Assembly (NCBI GenBank): GCA_001512495.1
Contig: LFRU01000095.1
Coordinates: 9,480-73,479, forward strand
Direction: 5' to 3'
Source of the DNA: Syntrophothermus sp. DTU052
Lineage (GTDB): Bacteria; Bacillota; Syntrophomonadia; Syntrophomonadales; DTU052
Length of the DNA stretch: 64,000 bases
Position 1 is the stretch's first letter, and the number at the start of each line of letters is the position of its first letter. The translations under genes and the position numbers were made by a program. The notes under the pieces are model-generated. The model was not told the DNA's origin and did no database searches. It saw only the letters and a program-made list of their open reading frames with translations. Positions 331 to 10,164 of the stretch are shown one piece after another.

Positions 331-411
331 AATCAGGTATAATTAAGAGGATTTGCTGTGGGAGTGGCCACGAGCAAATCTGTTTTGGATTACTAGCAAG
401 GAGGGAACTTG

Positions 412-2436
412 ATGAAGGTATACCCAACCCCCAAGATAAGGAACATAGCTTTTATAGCTCATGGAGGCTCCGGAAAGACCACCTTAGCCGAGGCCATGCT
501 CTACAACACAGGCGCCACCAACAGGCTGGGCAAGGTAGATGATGGCAATACGGTATCCGACTTTTTACCCGAGGAGATTAAACGCAAGATCAGCATAAGC
601 ACCAGTCTTGTGCCCTGTGAGTACCGGGATCACAAGATCAATATTCTGGATACGCCAGGTTTTGCTGACTTCTTAGGGGAGGTCAGGGCCGCAGTAAAGG
701 TGGCGGATAATGCCCTGGTAGTGGTCTCGGCCGTTGCAGGGGTTGAGGTGCAGACAGAGATGTTCTGGGAAGAGGCGCAGAACCTTCCCAAGATAGTCTT
801 TGTCAACCGGATGGACCGTGAAAATGCCAATTTTTATAAGACACTGGATGATCTCAAAGATAAGTTCTCCGGTACCATCGTTCCCCTGCAGCTCCCTATC
901 GGTGCGGAAGCCAGCTTTAAGGGAGTTGTTGATCTGCTGAAGATGAAAGCCCTGATATTTGAACCGGGCAGCGGGAAATACAAGGAAGAGGATATTCCCA
1001 CTGATATGATGGCCGAGGTGGAGAGCTATAAAGAACAACTGATTGAAGCGGCGGCTGAAGGTAATGATGATCTTCTGGTCAAGTATCTAGAGGGTGAGGA
1101 ACTGACCGATGAAGAGATCAGGACGGGGATAGCGGATGCCGCCTCCAAAGGTGCGGCGGTTTTCGTGTTCTGCGGTTCGGCTCTTAATAATATCGGGGTA
1201 CTCCCGGTTATGGATTTTATCGTCGACTGCATGGCAGCACCTCATGCCCAAACGGACCAGGATATGTCCGGGGAACCTCTGGCCGCGCTGGTCTTCAAGA
1301 CCATAGCCGACCCCTATATCGGACGCTTGAACTTCTTCAAAGTTATCCAGGGGGAAATAAAGGCTGATTCAGTTGTCTATAACGCTACCAAAGAGAGAGA
1401 TGAGAAGATCGGGCAGATACTGGTAATGCGCGGCAAGGAGCAGCAGGCGGTGCCCGAGGCGAAAAACGGTGATATCGTGGCGGTCGCCAAGCTGGCGGTA
1501 ACTGCCACCGGTGATACCCTGACAGTTAAGGCCAATCCCATAAAGTTGGAGGAGATTGTATTCCCTGAACCTACTCTGGGAACTGCCATTGAACCGAAGT
1601 CCAAGGGAGATGAAGACAAGCTGAGCAATTCTCTGCAGAGACTGATGGAAGAGGACCCAACTATCAGGCTGGAGAAGAATACTGAAACTAAACAGACCAT
1701 CCTCCACACCATGGGCGAAAGCCATACCGACATCATTGTAGAGCGCCTGCAGCGTAAATTCGGAGTAGAGGTAAAAACCGACGAGATGCGCATACCCTAC
1801 CGGGAAACCATCCGCGCCCAGGTTCAGGTGGAAGGAAAACATAAGAAACAATCCGGAGGGCACGGCCAGTACGGTCACGTCTGGTTGCGAATGGAACCGT
1901 CTGAAGAGGAATTTGAATTCGGCGAAGAGATCTTTGGCGGTGTAGTTCCCAAGCAGTACGTCCCGGCGGTGGAAAAGGGTATCCGCGAAGCTATGGCTGA
2001 AGGGGTTCTGGCCGGTTACCCGGTGACCAACATCAAGGCCGTCCTTTATGATGGTTCCTATCATTCGGTTGATTCATCAGAAATAGCTTTTAAAATGGCC
2101 GCCATCCTGGCGTTCCGCAAGGGCATGGAGCAGGCCAAACCGGTTTTGCTGGAACCGATATGTAACGTTGAGGTGGAAATACCGGAGCAGTTCATGGGAG
2201 ACATAATCGGTGATCTCAACAGCAAGCGGGGGCGGGTCCTGGGCATGGAGCCCTGCGGCAAGAATCAGGTGGTAAGAGCCCAAGTCCCATTAAAAGAGAT
2301 GGTCCGTTACAGTATTGACCTGAAATCAATCACCCAGGGACGAGGCAAGTTCAAGATGGAATTCGACCATTATGAGGAGGTGCCTCCCAAAGTGGCCGAG
2401 GAAATAATCGAAAAAACCAAGCGGGAAAGAGAATAG
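412..2436 (+). CDS. elongation factor G family GTPase (EF-G paralog)
   Basis: GTPase motifs AHGGSGKTT (G1), DTPG (G3) and NRMD (G4), with an EF-G-like C-terminal half. SD AAGGAGGG lies 6 nt upstream of ATG 412. The track start 409 is a TTG one codon earlier. Confidence 0.9.
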   Translation: MKVYPTPKIRNIAFIAHGGSGKTTLAEAMLYNTGATNRLGKVDDGNTVSDFLPEEIKRKISISTSLVPCEYRDHKINILDTPGFADFLGEVRAAVKVADNALVVVSAVAGVEVQTEMFWEEAQNLPKIVFVNRMDRENANFYKTLDDLKDKFSGTIVPLQLPIGAEASFKGVVDLLKMKALIFEPGSGKYKEEDIPTDMMAEVESYKEQLIEAAAEGNDDLLVKYLEGEELTDEEIRTGIADAASKGAAVFVFCGSALNNIGVLPVMDFIVDCMAAPHAQTDQDMSGEPLAALVFKTIADPYIGRLNFFKVIQGEIKADSVVYNATKERDEKIGQILVMRGKEQQAVPEAKNGDIVAVAKLAVTATGDTLTVKANPIKLEEIVFPEPTLGTAIEPKSKGDEDKLSNSLQRLMEEDPTIRLEKNTETKQTILHTMGESHTDIIVERLQRKFGVEVKTDEMRIPYRETIRAQVQVEGKHKKQSGGHGQYGHVWLRMEPSEEEFEFGEEIFGGVVPKQYVPAVEKGIREAMAEGVLAGYPVTNIKAVLYDGSYHSVDSSEIAFKMAAILAFRKGMEQAKPVLLEPICNVEVEIPEQFMGDIIGDLNSKRGRVLGMEPCGKNQVVRAQVPLKEMVRYSIDLKSITQGRGKFKMEFDHYEEVPPKVAEEIIEKTKRERE

Positions 2437-2440
2437 ACGG

Positions 2441-2468
2441 AAAAAGGGCTCGAAACGAGCCCTTTTTT
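2441..2468 (+). terminator. intrinsic terminator after the EF-G paralog
   Basis: Hairpin AAAAAGGGCTCG-AAA-CGAGCCCTTTTTT: GC-rich stem followed by a T-run. Confidence 0.75.
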
Positions 2469-2490
2469 ATATCCAGGAGATAATTACCGG

Positions 2491-2519
2491 TTGACGTATA
2501 TTTAGTGACGGTGTAAAAT
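2491..2519 (+). promoter_or_regulatory. sigma-A-type promoter candidate upstream of the structured RNA
   Basis: TTGACG (2491-2496), 17-nt spacer, TAAAAT (2514-2519). Confidence 0.4.
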
Positions 2520-2548
2520 GAGCCTCCATGCAAGCTAAACAAAAATTA

Positions 2549-2557
2549 TGTTATAAT
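2549..2557 (+). promoter_or_regulatory. extended -10 element (second promoter candidate)
   Basis: TGtTATAAT matches the TGnTATAAT extended -10 consensus. The -35 region is weak. Confidence 0.35.
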
Positions 2558-2576
2558 CTTAAATTAAGAATAATAG

Positions 2577-3137
2577 GTGGAGGTTGCAGTATTCTAGTCA
2601 ATCTCACCAGTTCTGAAGGCGGGCCTAAAAATCCGTCACGGGCACATCGATGAAGATTCTGGTGTCAGCTTTCGACGCCCAGTTGGGGGTTGATGCTGGA
2701 AGTTAAGGGTGTCGGGGCAGCCCGCAATGGCATGCGGGAACTGACCCCCCACCCGTGGAGGCTCCGAGGAGAAATCCTTGGGGAAAACCTGCATCTGGTT
2801 GGAAGCTGGGTGCAGTGTAGCCTGCCTTGAGTGGTATGGGCGGATGAGCTGTAGAAGGGCGGTGACCGATGGCCACGGCGCTGTCTATTCTTCTGAAACC
2901 CTTACTGCAAAAGAGGCTAAGAATTGGTCGAGGTTGTCGGGGAAATCCCCTAGACTGTGTGCGAAGGCACAGCCCTCTGTGGATTAAAGTGTGCACTAAG
3001 TGGTAATCCAGCCTCGTGTACGGCGACGTTGCGGGTTGAGCGTAAAGGGAAACCGCCTGCTTGGCGACAAGCAGGATGTTCAACGGGAAAACCTGCTGGA
3101 CCTAAGTCACAGCGTTTACTCAGAGGGCAACCTCCAC
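2577..3137 (+). ncRNA. ole: OLE (ornate, large, extremophilic) RNA candidate
   Basis: About 560 nt containing only short, R/C/G-rich overlapping ORFs. The ends are closed by an 11-bp helix, GTGGAGGTTGC (2577-2587) with GCAACCTCCAC (3127-3137). Internal GC hairpins occur at 2721-2738 and 3056-3075. It sits immediately 5' of an oapA-like membrane protein gene followed by dxs-tlyA-nadK-argR-recN, the known OLE gene neighbourhood. Confidence 0.7.
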
Positions 3138-3165
3138 TTCTGTGTATTTAACAGGGAGTGTATTT

Positions 3166-3747
3166 TTGTCGAGGCTTACAGATAGCAGCATACTTATATC
3201 GGCCCTTTGGGTTGCTTTCTTTACCTTTTTATCCGGTTTGATTATCAGCCTGGGACTAGAGTCGATTATAAATGCGGTTCAGGATCTGTTAATCTCGTTT
3301 CTGCTCCTGGGACTGGTGATACTGTCGGGTATCGTTTCCGATGCCATTGGAACCGCAGCCGCGGCGGCTGACGCGGTTCCGTTTAACGCCATGGCGGCCA
3401 AGAAAATACCAGGGGCCACCCAAGCGGTGAAACTGGTCAAGAATGCCGACCTGGTAGCCAACCTGACCGCTGATGTGGTAGGAGATATTGCCGGAACCCT
3501 CAGCGGAGCAATAGGTGCTTCGATAATATATACATTTAACACCCGGTTTGCCATGTATTCAATTGTGGATACCGTATTCCTGGGAGCGGCTATGACCAGT
3601 TTGATAGCCGCCCTGACCGTCGGCGGAAAAACAGTGGGGAAGAGCATTGCCATCAACAATGCCAACACAATAATCTTCAAGGTAGCCCAAATAATGATGT
3701 GGTTGGAAAACATAACCGGGTTTGAGCTGTTCCCGGGAAGAAGGTGA
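3166..3747 (+). CDS. oapA: OLE-associated protein A-like membrane protein
   Basis: Multi-TM hydrophobic protein located between the structured RNA and dxs, the characteristic OapA position. SD AGGGAG (3153-3158) lies 7 nt before TTG 3166. The track start GTG 3142 has no SD and abuts the RNA closing helix. Confidence 0.65.
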   Translation: MSRLTDSSILISALWVAFFTFLSGLIISLGLESIINAVQDLLISFLLLGLVILSGIVSDAIGTAAAAADAVPFNAMAAKKIPGATQAVKLVKNADLVANLTADVVGDIAGTLSGAIGASIIYTFNTRFAMYSIVDTVFLGAAMTSLIAALTVGGKTVGKSIAINNANTIIFKVAQIMMWLENITGFELFPGRR

Positions 3748-3783: not shown

Positions 3784-5643
3784 TTGAAAAGGCTCCCTCC
3801 CGCTAAACTCAAGAACTTATCCCAGGAGATCAGAGACCTTCTGGTCAATACCGTAGCTCAAACCGGGGGTCATCTGGCGGCCAATCTGGGCGTGGTCGAG
3901 CTGACTCTGGCCCTGCATTATGTATACGATCTTCCCAAGGACAAAATCGTGTGGGATGTTGGACACCAGAGTTATGTACACAAGATGCTGACCGGCAGAC
4001 TGGAGAAAATAAACAGCCTGCGCCAGTATCGGGGCTTAAGTGGGTTTCCCCGGGTGGATGAAAGCCCGTACGACATTTTTAATACCGGACATGCCAGTAC
4101 CTCGATTTCAGCTGCAGTTGGACTGGCGTTGGCACGTGATATGCAGCAGGATGACCATTCGGTGGTAGCCGTTATTGGAGACGGAGCCCTAACCGGTGGA
4201 TTGGCCTTTGAAGCAATGAACCATGCCGGTCATCTGGGGCTTGATTTTACAGTGGTTCTTAATGATAACGCCATGTCCATCTCCCCCAACGTGGGAGCGC
4301 TATCCGGCTATCTCCGCAAACTCCGGATGGATCCTGCCTATTCCCAGACCAAGGAAGAGGTGGAGCAGGCCCTCCTCCGTATTCCCGGGATCGGTGCCAA
4401 TCTGGTGAAAGCCGCAGGTAAGATCAAGGATATGGTGAAGTACCTGGTGGTGCCGGGGATGCTGTTTGAGGAATTGGGATTCACATATTTGGGACCCATC
4501 GACGGTCACAATATAGAAGATATGATAGTGGTGCTGCAGAGGGCCCGCCATATCAAAGGCCCGGTATTGGTCCACGTAATTACGGAAAAAGGAAAGGGCT
4601 ATCCTCCAGCCGTTGAAAACCCGGACGTGTTTCACGGGATTGGGCCCTTTGACGTGGCCACGGGGAAGGTCATAAAATCCGGAGTCAAGACGTATACCCA
4701 GGTTTTTGGCGAGTTCATGGTGAGGAAGGCCGCCAGTTCTCCGGACCTGGTAGCTATAACTGCAGCCATGACCAGCGGTACCGGACTTAATGTCTTCGCG
4801 GAAAAATTTCCCGATCGTTTTTTTGACGTGGGCATCTGTGAGGAGCACGCAGTTACCATGGCCGCCGGCCTCGCCAGTGGGGGTATGAGACCGGTGGTGG
4901 CGATTTATTCCACTTTTCTGCAGCGAAGCTTTGACCAGATTATCCATGATGTATGCCTGCAGAACCTGCCGGTAGTCTTCGCCGTCGACCGCGCTGGACT
5001 GGTGGGCGAGGATGGTCCCACCCATCACGGGGTATTTGACCTTTCTTACCTGCGGCAGATACCGAACATGATCGTTATGGCCCCTTCTCACGAGGATGAA
5101 TTAAATGATATGCTGGATTCAGCCTTGAAATACGGGCAGCCGGTAGCCATACGCTATCCACGCGGCAGTGGGGAAGGGGTAGACATTAAAAACAGCCCGG
5201 AATACATTCCGCCGGGCGAGGCACGGCTCTTACAGGAGGGTGATCAGGTTCTGCTGGTTGCCATCGGCCGGATGGTGAACATAGCCATGAAAGCCGCCGT
5301 TTTTCTACGTGAGCGCGGAATTTCTGCGGCGGTTATCAATGCCCGTTTTGCCAAACCGCTGGATACGGATTTGATTGGCTTATGGGCCGGCCGCTGCCGC
5401 CGCGTAGTGACTCTGGAAGAGAATGTCCTTATGGGAGGTTTCGGCGGAGGGGTGGCGGAGGCGATGAACTGTAAAGCAATTAATGCGGAATTCCTGCACC
5501 TGGGAATACCCGACTCTTTTGTGGACCATGGTGCAGTAAGCTGTCTCTTGGAGGATTTGGGGCTTGATGCTCCCGCAGTGGCCGCATCGATAGTCGACCG
5601 CTGGCCGGAGCTGATTAAACAAAGAGCTGTCCGGGGGTTATAG
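3784..5643 (+). CDS. dxs: 1-deoxy-D-xylulose-5-phosphate synthase
   Basis: 619 aa. Typical DXS N-terminus, GHQSYVHK, TPP-binding GDGALTGG, and transketolase-like middle and C-terminal domains. Confidence 0.95.
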   Translation: MKRLPPAKLKNLSQEIRDLLVNTVAQTGGHLAANLGVVELTLALHYVYDLPKDKIVWDVGHQSYVHKMLTGRLEKINSLRQYRGLSGFPRVDESPYDIFNTGHASTSISAAVGLALARDMQQDDHSVVAVIGDGALTGGLAFEAMNHAGHLGLDFTVVLNDNAMSISPNVGALSGYLRKLRMDPAYSQTKEEVEQALLRIPGIGANLVKAAGKIKDMVKYLVVPGMLFEELGFTYLGPIDGHNIEDMIVVLQRARHIKGPVLVHVITEKGKGYPPAVENPDVFHGIGPFDVATGKVIKSGVKTYTQVFGEFMVRKAASSPDLVAITAAMTSGTGLNVFAEKFPDRFFDVGICEEHAVTMAAGLASGGMRPVVAIYSTFLQRSFDQIIHDVCLQNLPVVFAVDRAGLVGEDGPTHHGVFDLSYLRQIPNMIVMAPSHEDELNDMLDSALKYGQPVAIRYPRGSGEGVDIKNSPEYIPPGEARLLQEGDQVLLVAIGRMVNIAMKAAVFLRERGISAAVINARFAKPLDTDLIGLWAGRCRRVVTLEENVLMGGFGGGVAEAMNCKAINAEFLHLGIPDSFVDHGAVSCLLEDLGLDAPAVAASIVDRWPELIKQRAVRGL

Positions 5644-6507
5644 ATGTCCCACGAAAGGGCCGATATCAGACTGTATAAAGAAGGCCTGGCTCCCAGCCGT
5701 GAGAAGGCCCGGGCCTTGATCCTGGCGGGGTTAGTCTTTGCCGACGGGCAAAGGGTTGACAAACCGGGTCAGAAGGTAGACGAAAAGGCCGAACTTCAGG
5801 TAACAGGCAACGACCAACCGAGTTTTGTCAGCCGCGGGGGGATGAAACTCCTGGGAGCAATTAAGGCCATGAATCTGGATTTTACGGATAAGATTGTCCT
5901 CGATGTCGGAGCATCCACCGGTGGGTTTACCGACTGTGCCCTTCAGCATGGTGCCCGCAAGGTTTATGCGGTCGATGTAGGATATGGGCAGCTTGACTGG
6001 AGACTGCGCCAGGACCCGCGGGTTATCATCCGGGAAAGGACCAATATAAGATATGTGAAACCGGAAGATTTTCCGGAGAAGATGGATCTGGCTACAGTTG
6101 ATGTGGCTTTTATTTCCCTCCGGCTGGTTCTGCCGGTGGTATCCCGGCTGTTGACCGCTGACGGGGAGGCAGTAGCCCTGGTCAAACCTCAGTTTGAGGC
6201 GGGCCGCGAACAGGTGGGCAAAAAAGGGGTGGTCAAGAGCCCGGAAATTCATGAAGAAGTGCTCCGGCGGGTGACCCGGCAGGCGGCGGAATGCGGCCTG
6301 ACGCTGGCGAATGCCTGCTACTCACCCATTAAGGGCCCCAACGGTAATATCGAGTTCTTCCTTCATCTGCAGAAGGGGATGATCCCGGCCTGCGATCATT
6401 CGTTACTCTCCCTGGTGGTGGCATCCGCTCATCGAGAGTTGGGTAAACCGATTGCCGGTGGGGAACAACTCGTCAGGGATACAGATGAACCCTCACCCGG
6501 CCAATAA
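5644..6507 (+). CDS. tlyA: TlyA family rRNA 2'-O-methyltransferase
   Basis: S4-like N-terminus (RADIRLYKEGLAPSREKARALI) plus FtsJ-type SAM fold (LDVGASTGGFTD). The ATG follows the dxs stop directly. Confidence 0.9.
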   Translation: MSHERADIRLYKEGLAPSREKARALILAGLVFADGQRVDKPGQKVDEKAELQVTGNDQPSFVSRGGMKLLGAIKAMNLDFTDKIVLDVGASTGGFTDCALQHGARKVYAVDVGYGQLDWRLRQDPRVIIRERTNIRYVKPEDFPEKMDLATVDVAFISLRLVLPVVSRLLTADGEAVALVKPQFEAGREQVGKKGVVKSPEIHEEVLRRVTRQAAECGLTLANACYSPIKGPNGNIEFFLHLQKGMIPACDHSLLSLVVASAHRELGKPIAGGEQLVRDTDEPSPGQ

Positions 6508-6578
6508 CGGGATAGACCAGAGGTGAAAAGCAGTAAGGTTCGAGACTGAAATAGAATTCTTTGACTAGGAGCTTGGAA

Positions 6579-7373
6579 ATGATAGTTGGTTTGGTGCCAA
6601 ACTCTCACCGGAACGCAACTCGCAGGGTGGCTAACGAGGTAGCTCTCATCATGGAATCACAGGGGCTCCGTGTTATCCGGGACTGGAAGGAAGGTGCCGA
6701 GGTTCCTGATCTGCTGGTTGTATTCGGTGGTGACGGAACTATTCTGGGTACTGCGCGGCGGTGTGGTCACCTGGGTATTCCCCTATTAACCATAAATCTG
6801 GGCCGGGTTGGCTTTCTGGCTGAATTGGAGGCCCACGAACTGAGTCAATACCTGCCGCGGATAATCGCCGGGGATTATCACCTGGAGAAACGCATGATGC
6901 TGAAGGTAACCGTCCGTCGGGAAGGTGGCCCCATCTTTCAGAGCGAGGCCTTGAATGAGGCTGCGATCCTGCGGCAGGGAGTTGCCCGCATGATTCGACT
7001 GCAGATACTTATTGACCGGAAACCCTTGATCAGGTACGCTGCTGACGGAATAATCTGCGCTACCCCAACGGGTTCCACTGCTTACTCCCTGTCAGCAGGA
7101 GGGCCGGTGTTGATGCCGGAAACTCAGTTGATGGTTATTACCCCTGTCTGCCCGTTTGCGCCGGCCTTAAAACCTTTGGTAATGGAAGGGAACCATAATT
7201 TGACCATTATTCCGGAGAACGAAAAGGCAGTGCTTACCGTGGACGGACAGGATACAGTCACCCTGTCACCGGGGGACGATGTGGAAATCGAGCGTTCCCC
7301 CTACCATATCAGCCTGGTTAGGCTGAAGGAACAAAGCATTCTTGAGGTTCTGGGCAGGAAATTGCAGCTATGA
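6579..7373 (+). CDS. nadK: NAD kinase
   Basis: GGDGT motif (VVFGGDGTILG) and a conserved C-terminal half (ATPTGSTAYSLSAGGP). SD AGGAG lies 7 nt before ATG 6579. The track start 6561 is an upstream TTG. Confidence 0.9.
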   Translation: MIVGLVPNSHRNATRRVANEVALIMESQGLRVIRDWKEGAEVPDLLVVFGGDGTILGTARRCGHLGIPLLTINLGRVGFLAELEAHELSQYLPRIIAGDYHLEKRMMLKVTVRREGGPIFQSEALNEAAILRQGVARMIRLQILIDRKPLIRYAADGIICATPTGSTAYSLSAGGPVLMPETQLMVITPVCPFAPALKPLVMEGNHNLTIIPENEKAVLTVDGQDTVTLSPGDDVEIERSPYHISLVRLKEQSILEVLGRKLQL

Positions 7374-7942
7374 GTTTTCGCAATGCGGTTAATCTGTCCC
7401 ATCTTTGTGTAAAAATGCGGGTAAAACCGGATGACACGGTGGTAGATGCTACCTGCGGCAATGGGCATGATACACTGTTTTTGGCTCAGATCGTGACCCG
7501 GGGACGGGTTCTTGCATTTGATATTTCACCCCTGGCGATAGCGAATACTGCCGCCAGGCTTAAGGAGCACGGGGTATCTCATCGGGTAGAGTTGTGTCAG
7601 GAAGACTTCCGCAACCTCCGGGCTTACGTAAGGTCACCGGTGGCGGCCATCATGTTTAACCTGGGCTATCTCCCGGGAGCTTCCCGGGAAACGGCTACCA
7701 AAGCCGAGCATTCCAGAGAGGCTGTGGAAACGGCGGTTAATCTGGTGCGGCCGGGAGGGGTGGTTACCGTAGTTTGCTATCCCGGCCATCAGGGGGGAGC
7801 TGAAGAGACGCATGAAATTCTGGCGGTAACCGGAGGCTTGAGCCAGAAAGAATTCGAGGTACTGAAGGTTGATTTCCTAAACCAGGCCCATAACCCGCCG
7901 CTGCTGGTGGCGGTTTACAGGCTGGAAGGGGATAGAGCATGA
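7370..7942 (+). CDS. mnmM: YtqB/MnmM-like class I SAM-dependent methyltransferase
   Basis: VVDATCGNGHDTLFLA, VLAFDI, FNLGYLPG, CYPGHQGG and NPPLLVAV match my memory of B. subtilis YtqB. ATGA overlap with nadK. Confidence 0.7.
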   Translation: MSFRNAVNLSHLCVKMRVKPDDTVVDATCGNGHDTLFLAQIVTRGRVLAFDISPLAIANTAARLKEHGVSHRVELCQEDFRNLRAYVRSPVAAIMFNLGYLPGASRETATKAEHSREAVETAVNLVRPGGVVTVVCYPGHQGGAEETHEILAVTGGLSQKEFEVLKVDFLNQAHNPPLLVAVYRLEGDRA

Positions 7943-8388
7943 AAGCGCGACGTCACATGGCGATACGAGATATTGTGTCCAACCAAAAGATATCAACCCA
8001 GGAGGAGCTGTGTGAAGCCTTATCCGCCCAGGGTTTTATGGTGACCCAGGCTACGGTTTCCCGGGATATCAAGGAGTTAAAATTGATTAAAGTGTTCAGC
8101 CCGGAGGGTTACCATTACGCCCTGCCGGAGGCCCCGCCCCCCAGGTCATCGTTGGACCGGATGCGGAGGCTCTTTCTTGACACGGTGGTGGAGATAACAG
8201 ACAGTGAAAACCTGGTGGTGGTCAAGACCATCCCGGGTTCTGCGCATCTGGTGGCCTCAAACATCGATACCGCGGAGATACCTGAAATAGTGGGAACCGT
8301 GGCCGGCGATGATACCATTATTGTGGTGGTAAAGCCGGCAAACGCGGTTCCTGAGGTAATGAAACGGTTCCGTTCTTTGTTGAAATAA
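7939..8388 (+). CDS. argR: arginine repressor
   Basis: Winged-helix N-terminus (STQEELCEALSAQGFMVTQATVSRDIKEL) and C-terminal GTVAGDDTIIVV. ATGA overlap with the upstream gene. Confidence 0.9.
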   Translation: MKARRHMAIRDIVSNQKISTQEELCEALSAQGFMVTQATVSRDIKELKLIKVFSPEGYHYALPEAPPPRSSLDRMRRLFLDTVVEITDSENLVVVKTIPGSAHLVASNIDTAEIPEIVGTVAGDDTIIVVVKPANAVPEVMKRFRSLLK

Positions 8389-8493
8389 CTACTCCGGGAT
8401 TTGCAACCGGCAGTTTTCTTGGGAATAAGACGTTGGATGCCACTGTTTGGTCCCCGGTTGTAATTGTACAGTCTTGGTAAGGGCTGATGTGTG

Positions 8494-10164
8494 ATGCTTA
8501 GGGAACTGTATATCAAAAACATGGTTTTAATCGATGAACTGCGGCTGCAGTTCGGTGCGGGGCTAAACGTCCTGACTGGAGAAACCGGTACCGGCAAATC
8601 GATTGTTGTTGACTGCATGGAACTTCTGGTGGGTGAGCGTTTCAATTCTGATGTGATTCGCAGCCATGATCAGAAGTGCCTGGTCGAAGGAGTATTTGAA
8701 GTAATGCCCGACTCCCCACTGACGCAATTCCTGCAGGAGAAGAACCTGTGGGAGGATGAGGATGAACTCTTGATAATCTGCCGAGAAATTACGCCTCAGG
8801 GGAGGAGCATCAACCGGGTCAATGGACATACGGTCACTGCGGCTATGCTGAGAAACCTGGCCGAGTATCTGGTGGATATACATATGCAGAACGATAACCA
8901 GCAGGTCTTAAACCCGCGGTTTCACCGTCAATTCCTGGACAGCCTTTCTTCCGAGGTAAGAGAAATACTGCCCCGTTTGGAAAAAGCCTACCACGAATGG
9001 CAGACGACCATGAACCGCATTGAAGAATTGAGGGCTCTTAAGGAACAGAAAGCCCGGGATTTGGATTTTATCGAATACCAGATAGGTGAGATTGAGTCTG
9101 CGGCTCTGGTGGAAGGTGAGGATGAGGAACTGCTGGCGGAGAGAGCCCGGCTCCTCAACTGGGAAAAGTTATTAAACACCCTGTCCCAGGTTGATAACCT
9201 GGTCTTTGAGGACGGCAATGGTGCGCTGGTGCGGCTGGCCCAGGCCCGGCAGGCCTTGCTCGGTATCGATGACAGCTTTTTTACGGAGCTTGCTGCCGTT
9301 ATCGATGAGGCCTACTATATGCTTGAGGATATCAAGCCCCGGATAGCTCGTTTCCGGGACGAAGAAGAGTATGATCCGGTACGCCTGGAGGTTATCGAAG
9401 AACGATTGCAGCTCTTGAACAAGATCAAACGTAAGTATGGCGGCACCATTGCCGCTGCTTCAGATTACCTGATGGAATTGAAAAATCAGAGGAGGTCGCT
9501 GGAAGATCTGGAGTATCAGACTCGGGAGTTGGAGGAGAGAAAGCAGGAGCGGTGGAAAGAGTACCGTGAACTGGCAGCCGGGGTTTCAAGTTTTCGTCAC
9601 CAGGCTGCTCGTGCTCTCGAGGCCAGAATAGAGGAGGAACTGGCCCAGCTATCCATGCCCGGGGTAACATTTAGGATAGATGTCAATCCGGCTGCCCCTA
9701 CCGCTGCGGGGATTGACGAGGTGGTCTTCCAGTTTTCCGCCAACCCCGGAGAAGCACCCCGTCCCATCAACAAGATCGCCTCCGGGGGCGAATCGTCCCG
9801 CTTCATTCTGGCGCTTAAAACCGCCCTGGCTGATGTCTACCGCGTACCGGTCCTGGTCTTTGATGAGATCGACGCCGGTGTGGGGGGACAGGCCTTGCTG
9901 CAGGTTGGAGCCAGGCTGCAGAAGTTATCCCGGAATCACCAGGTGATTCTGGTCACCCACTCCCCACAGATCGCCTGTCTGGCAGACAGCCATCAACAGC
10001 TGGAGAAAGTCTATGAATCCGGTGAGACCCGCGTAACTGCCCGGGTTCTTGACTTCGAGGGAAGAGTTGTTGAGCTTTCTCGAATGCTGGCCGGGGATAA
10101 TGCAGACGGTATCGCGTGGGAACACGCCCGCCAAATGTTAATGAACGCCTGTAATAACAGGTAA
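8494..10164 (+). CDS. recN: DNA repair protein RecN
   Basis: Walker A GETGTGKS, coiled-coil middle, signature SGGESSR, Walker B VLVFDEIDAGVGG. Confidence 0.95.
   Translation: MLRELYIKNMVLIDELRLQFGAGLNVLTGETGTGKSIVVDCMELLVGERFNSDVIRSHDQKCLVEGVFEVMPDSPLTQFLQEKNLWEDEDELLIICREITPQGRSINRVNGHTVTAAMLRNLAEYLVDIHMQNDNQQVLNPRFHRQFLDSLSSEVREILPRLEKAYHEWQTTMNRIEELRALKEQKARDLDFIEYQIGEIESAALVEGEDEELLAERARLLNWEKLLNTLSQVDNLVFEDGNGALVRLAQARQALLGIDDSFFTELAAVIDEAYYMLEDIKPRIARFRDEEEYDPVRLEVIEERLQLLNKIKRKYGGTIAAASDYLMELKNQRRSLEDLEYQTRELEERKQERWKEYRELAAGVSSFRHQAARALEARIEEELAQLSMPGVTFRIDVNPAAPTAAGIDEVVFQFSANPGEAPRPINKIASGGESSRFILALKTALADVYRVPVLVFDEIDAGVGGQALLQVGARLQKLSRNHQVILVTHSPQIACLADSHQQLEKVYESGETRVTARVLDFEGRVVELSRMLAGDNADGIAWEHARQMLMNACNNR

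Follow-up and report, generated by a model that had tools for sequence, protein, structure and literature searches.

OLE RNA (Rfam family RF01071) is a well-established noncoding, structured RNA about 600 nt long that occurs in Gram-positive anaerobes. Among the described OLE systems, that of the alkaliphile Halalkalibacterium (Bacillus) halodurans C-125 is produced at a high level from its own proximal promoter, and its natural 5′ ends lie near the start of the closing stem P1 (Wallace et al., 2012, PMC3413148). In this organism the RNA gene follows xseA-xseB-ispA and is itself followed immediately by oapA and by dxs-tlyA-nadK-argR-recN. Binding of OapB requires the GNRA loop and a single-nucleotide bulge of hairpin P13, and P14.1 is a secondary OapB site in B. 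halodurans (Yang et al., 2021, PMC7936274). OLE RNAs of Clostridium acetobutylicum and Clostridium botulinum form homodimers in cryo-EM structures, in which the A-A dimer bridge B1 is formed at loop L4, P7 takes part in bridge B2 via loop L7 and the L9.3 kissing loop makes bridge B3, with covariation reported for its palindrome (PMC12286853); a Clostridium OLE structure is available as PDB 9LCR, as cited in PMC12265935. It was also reported that the presence of OLE and OapA is anticorrelated with that of MpfA (PMC11332333).

The locus described here lies in a window, the whole 64-kb stretch of DNA that was analysed, of a metagenome-assembled genome (2.28 Mb, 114 contigs). The host is an uncultured member of the Syntrophomonadaceae and belongs to a strictly anaerobic syntroph-type lineage, in keeping with the usual carriers of OLE (Bacillota, typically anaerobes or extremophiles); the nearest oapA loci (77–90% identity) come from metagenome-assembled genomes labelled Syntrophomonadaceae, Syntrophothermus or Syntrophomonadales. 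It shares with the H. halodurans system the P1 closure, an immediately downstream oapA, the dxs-tlyA-nadK-argR-recN cluster, a proximal promoter before P1, a P13 hairpin with GNRA loop and bulge, and OapB-like and YbxF-like genes. It differs in its upstream neighbour, an EF-G paralog with its own terminator instead of xseA-xseB-ispA, in one shorter variable hairpin and in a mnmM-like methyltransferase gene between nadK and argR. With the Clostridium RNAs it has in common the A-rich L4 loop and the GGCC of the P9 loop, whereas its P7 is much shorter. Other Syntrophomonadales OLE loci (L055–L083; L009, L011) are alike in being full-length (447–509 bits) and in having an extended −10 box, a downstream oapA and the short hairpin, but many of them have ispA directly upstream. 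The features of the locus, in window coordinates, are as follows.

409–2436, forward strand: second EF-G paralog, 675 aa (all five EF-G domains by Pfam; NCBIfam NF009381, 963.9 bits)
2440–2468, forward strand: intrinsic terminator of the EF-G gene, GGGCUCG-AAA-CGAGCCC followed by a U-run (−19.1 kcal/mol, z = −4.67)
2491–2519, forward strand: distal sigma-A-like promoter, TTGACG-17-TAAAAT (pattern scan, 10 of 12 matches)
2529–2557, forward strand: proximal promoter, with the extended −10 box TGTTATAAT at 2549–2557 and a weak element, TGCAAG, in the −35 position at 2529–2534 (sequence and conservation)
2565–3150, forward strand: OLE RNA gene of the full-length type (RF01071, 491.9 bits; single copy; fold z = −7.05)
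2577–2587, forward strand: P1 stem, 5′ strand (exact complement of 3127–3137; covariation)
2618–2637, forward strand: hairpin GGCGGGCCUAAAAAUCCGUC with an invariant A-rich loop, mapped as P4/L4 (columns invariant in a 14-sequence alignment)
2761–2785, forward strand: shortened variable hairpin, probably P7, of 9 bp with a GAAA loop (RF01071 alignment)
2871–2874, forward strand: GGCC palindrome in the loop of the long P9 hairpin, the L9.3 kissing loop (sequence; GGCC in several aligned relatives)
3014–3034, forward strand: P13 hairpin with bulged U3019 and the GNRA tetraloop GCGA at 3023–3026 (RF01071 alignment)
3056–3075, forward strand: P14.1 hairpin with a GCGA tetraloop (RF01071 alignment)
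3127–3137, forward strand: P1 stem, 3′ strand (complement of 2577–2587; covariation)
3166–3747, forward strand: oapA, encoding a 193-aa multi-pass membrane protein, TTG start (homologs, hydrophobic segments, weak CNNM match)
3784–10164, forward strand: dxs, tlyA, nadK, mnmM-like methyltransferase gene, argR and recN (Pfam, NCBIfam)

The original prediction had read this region as an OLE-class RNA and had proposed a covariance-model search to check it. The call was correct: the Rfam model matches positions 2565–3150 of the forward strand with 491.9 bits (E 5.1e-142), far above the gathering score of 50, and the match spans positions 1–616 of the 616 of the model without truncation. An artefact of the model match is not credible because of the score of 492 bits, which also lies inside the range of the relatives (443–509 bits). 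No other Rfam family was matched in the 64-kb window, and the genome-wide RF01071 search returned this OLE only. The minimum-free-energy fold of 2565–3150 (−259 kcal/mol, with the z score calculated against shuffles) includes the P1 helix. The RNA is of the full-length type and not variant 1 or 2, since P8, P9 and P13 (GCGA loop and bulged U) are present and one hairpin, probably P7, is shortened. The locus is thus a routine, textbook member of the already known OLE family. Taken jointly, a single full-length ole gene at 2565–3150 and the transcription, RNA structure and particle function proposed for it below are held to be very highly probable.

The closing helix is read directly from the sequence. 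Positions 2577–2587 (GTGGAGGTTGC) are the exact reverse complement of 3127–3137 (GCAACCTCCAC), giving 11 bp, and an additional G-U pair between G2576 and T3138 extends the helix to 12 bp, exactly as had been described for the ends of the region. It also covaries: when 14 OLE loci from Syntrophomonadales, Marinococcus and Eubacteriaceae are aligned, both partners have changed in 7 of the 12 pairs, and the covariation score is 0.39, a value that none of 500 shuffles reached (their mean being 0.21). The 5′ strand reads GGUGGAGGUUGC in the window, CAAAAGGCUG in L011, GGCAGGUGGU in L012 and GUUGAAUGGU in Marinococcus, each with its matching 3′ strand. This helix is the P1 stem of the literature (PMC3413148).

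Both dimerisation elements, the A-rich L4 loop and the palindromic P9 loop, are present at the sequence level, their role being taken from the Clostridium structures (PMC12286853). The assignment of 2618–2637 to P4/L4 is our own mapping; within it, CCUAAAAAUCC at 2624–2634 is invariant in alignment A2, in which the J4a/5 region, where the k-turn for OapC binding is expected, is also highly conserved. The P13 determinants of OapB binding are intact in the aligned sequence. In the shortened hairpin, 4 nt replace model positions 207–233 (27 positions), that is, 23 nt fewer than the Rfam consensus; it is equally short in all Syntrophomonadaceae relatives in the alignment and long in Marinococcus and UBA5449, in a region described as naturally variable (PMC11332333).

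The TTG start codon of the downstream gene lies 29 nt past P1 and 7 nt past the ribosome-binding site AGGGAG (3153–3158), and the pattern scan found no terminator between OLE and this gene. Weak terminator-like sites at 2868–2885 (inside OLE) and 3200–3214 (inside oapA) were set aside as weak pattern matches. Homologs of the encoded protein were found in 50 loci with 33–90% identity, and an OLE match stands directly upstream of the homolog in all 14 loci scanned with Rfam, which supports the proposal that the multi-TM gene after the RNA encodes OapA. By homology and position, the gene at 3166–3747 is oapA. The protein shows a weak CNNM/DUF21 match in Pfam (window 3301–3717; E 2e-4, below the Pfam cut-off). 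Apart from OapA, no CNNM/MpfA paralog and no MpfA/CorC-type Mg2+ exporter paralog was detectable in the whole genome, which fits the anticorrelation between OLE and MpfA (PMC11332333).

Pfam and NCBIfam confirmed the neighbours EF-G, dxs, tlyA, nadK, argR and recN as they had been named from the open reading frames. Additionally, nadK and argR flank and overlap an MnmM-type tRNA methyltransferase gene (7370–7942; NCBIfam NF053511, 200.9 bits). The gene spoIVB follows recN, the genes from dxs to spoIVB are co-oriented with short gaps, and the terminator scan of the forward strand gave only weak terminator-like sites before about 13021.

Candidates for the other protein partners were found outside the window, in the search for oapB and oapC homologs that the original prediction had suggested. 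OapB is a KOW protein of the YbzG type, and the OapB-like ORF (G000:C92:12336-12674) is located between map and infA, the position of ybzG in Bacillus, which guided the search. Of all PDB chains, 7k9b_A (B. halodurans “OLE-associated protein B”) matches it best, with E 9e-14 over residues 6–92 of 98, and the KOW loop retains its Gly-Arg dipeptide. The ORF overlaps the infA start (12649) by 26 nt, and its true start is probably an internal ATG (MDELVGR...), not the first start codon. Pfam DUF2187 (PF09953) had been assumed to be the OapB family; this assumption was wrong and the absences of DUF2187 say nothing on OapB. It had no match in the genome, in its family or in four other OLE genomes, bar one weak match in Marinococcus that overlaps a GntR-type gene on the opposite strand. 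A search for OapB with the Pfam KOW family found only L24 and NusG. The YbxF/OapC-like L7Ae protein gene (G000:C14:11490-11753) is located between rpoC and rpsL, and in the PDB its product comes closest to B. subtilis YbxF (4lck and 3v7e, E 1e-15); a distinct YlxQ paralog is encoded in the nusA-infB operon. Judged by these matches and by their location at the conserved map-infA and rpoC-rpsL sites, the genome holds candidates for all three established OLE partners.

On the upstream side, the canonical fusA is found elsewhere, after rpsG in the rpsL-rpsG cluster of contig C14, so that the gene at 409–2436 is a second EF-G paralog; it is the upstream neighbour of ole and not part of the OLE unit. 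The terminator at 2440–2468, which a simple pattern scan left unlisted, belongs to this gene, and the description of the RNA as having its own terminator was therefore misleading, as none lies between OLE and oapA. In L004, L005, L006 and L008 the stem of this terminator is conserved and its loop varies. The EF-G paralog, the terminator and both promoters precede OLE in all genomes sampled from the genus of the window, and they do so in a second genus of the same family as well (family f1, genera g1 and g2; EF-G identity 81–94%); the EF-G-terminator-OLE arrangement is confined to this family. In other families of the order, in UBA5449 and in Marinococcus, the upstream neighbour is ispA, preceded by xseA or xseAB where checked; in the genome of the window, xseA-xseB lie on contig C5 and ispA alone on contig C59. 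What is said of the classical OLE gene order draws on later papers and on our own comparison of loci. With EF-G upstream in at least two genera, the arrangement is an inherited, family-level rearrangement, not a peculiarity of this locus; its breakpoint lies just upstream of the ole promoter and has left ole-oapA-dxs and the following genes intact. The original prediction had listed EF-G in place of ispA/xseB as a difference of the locus; the neighbour and its strong terminator are real, but they are shared across the family. Further upstream of the window, four or five genes at G000:C80:134-6404 resemble, by eye, a HerA-like ATPase, an Mre11-like phosphoesterase and Rad50-like ATPases, and Fur-like, FolE-like, signal-peptidase-like and SurE-like ORFs come next, before the EF-G paralog.

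Both sigma-A-like promoter sites that had been pointed out (2491–2519 and 2549–2557) are present. The distal one retains TTGAC and TAnAAT in L004, L005, L006 and L008 and not in L011, L012 and L009; it is thus conserved only among the closest relatives, and its use is uncertain. The proximal −10 box, on the other hand, belongs to a much wider pattern. In 49 of 52 loci of several lineages, OLE is preceded at a short distance by TGnTAnnnT, mostly TGnTATAAT; the count is anchored on the invariant GCAGTATYCTAGTC motif in those loci with enough upstream sequence, some genomes being included twice. Its distance to the anchor motif is fairly consistent within a lineage: 33–42 nt for Syntrophomonadales (counted to the conserved GCAGTAT), 30 nt for Marinococcus and about 22–25 nt for Eubacteriaceae. 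The box is present whatever the upstream gene. The predicted transcription start at about 2563–2566, deduced from the position of this box, falls where the Rfam model begins, 12 nt before P1. Since B. halodurans also has its own, experimentally tested ole promoter (PMC3413148), independent transcription is a trait of the OLE family and not, as had been proposed, a difference of this locus. Synteny in the family of the window breaks exactly at the proximal promoter, which supports ole as the head of a conserved transcription unit. The TGCAAG element lies 17 nt from the −10 box; more generally, a TG(C/T)AAG element precedes the proximal TATAAT by exactly 17 nt. It is kept in the genus of the window and in one genome of a second genus (L078) despite its poor fit to the −35 consensus, and it might serve as a regulator site or as an alternative −35.

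OLE is widespread in the order of the host. An order-level covariance-model survey found it in 52 of 61 sampled genomes, nearly all as single full-length matches of 447–509 bits, so an OLE gene is the expected state in this lineage. It is absent from all five sampled genomes of family f4 (G013, G016, G018, G020 and G022), one of them a closed single-contig genome, and almost always present in the other three families of the order; the absence across f4 looks like a clean lineage-level loss. Fragmentary OLE was found at G009:C78:32035-32386, where only model positions 54–277 and 286–435 are matched, and at G014:C54:9333-9823, in three matching pieces; either decay of the ole genes or faulty assembly could account for this. 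Two full-length copies occur on separate contigs of G047 (C184:1435-2022 and C3:30790-31377), which could be due to duplication, strain mixture or contamination. Syntrophomonas wolfei was reportedly one of the OLE hosts recognised first; no paper that treats OLE in Syntrophomonas came up in literature searches.

Four other readings of the locus have to be weighed beside an independently transcribed, functional ole gene. The statement that the region has no credible ORF did not hold literally, since the ORF scan gives a 126-aa antisense ORF at 2703–3083, which could be taken for a minus-strand protein gene in which the RNA-like features are incidental, all the more as its length is the same in the four closest relatives. 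It is lost, however, in the more distant L011, L009, L016 and L017, whose longest ORFs are of 52–69 aa and whose RNA nucleotide sequence is still highly conserved, so that it is not a gene. Conservation tracks paired RNA columns and invariant loops, in line with the covariance-model score, and the coding reading is effectively refuted already, with practically no probability left to it. That the RNA is a decaying, non-functional relic might be suggested by the shortened hairpin and by the fragments in G009 and G014 of the same order, but it is extremely improbable: the match is full-length with a score like that of other species, P1, L4, the GGCC loop of P9 and the P13 and P14.1 tetraloops are all intact, and so are the oapA, oapB-like and oapC-like genes, whereas the short hairpin is common to the whole family and falls in a naturally variable region (PMC11332333).

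The remaining two readings concern the relation of ole to its upstream neighbour. Part of the OLE RNA of B. halodurans is co-transcribed with neighbouring genes (PMC3413148), and OLE here could likewise lack a promoter of its own and arise solely from EF-G transcripts that read through and are then processed. The strong terminator after EF-G, and the extended −10 box at a fixed distance from OLE across lineages with quite different upstream genes, make this very unlikely. The inherited adjacency could also reflect a functional tie between the EF-G paralog and the OLE particle, and ole could receive two regulatory inputs from its tandem promoters. A tie of this kind would fit the reports that connect OLE with ribosomal proteins, bS21 among them. 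It is nevertheless regarded as improbable, if with a small chance of being right, since the comparison of sequences shows no more than inherited adjacency, and the same strong terminator separates both genes.

For the ole gene as an independent unit, the following course of events is proposed. The terminator at 2440–2468 would insulate ole from the EF-G paralog gene. The extended −10 promoter would most likely set the transcription start at about 2564, the distal promoter may add further ole transcription, and transcription would continue into oapA and probably into dxs-tlyA-nadK-mnmM-argR-recN. By analogy with H. halodurans, the processed RNA of about 590 nt would dimerise and associate with OapB, OapC (YbxF) and the membrane protein OapA, and the resulting membrane-associated particle would help the cell to cope with stresses such as short-chain alcohols, cold, excess Mg2+ and poor carbon sources, a function transferred here from a distant, Bacillus-type model organism. 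Beyond the correct annotation of the region, the significance of the locus is small: it supplies a further clean example of OLE with oapA, in an uncultured lineage of fatty-acid-degrading syntrophs, and its comparison with other loci brings out an extended −10 box just before P1 that is near-universal across distant lineages.
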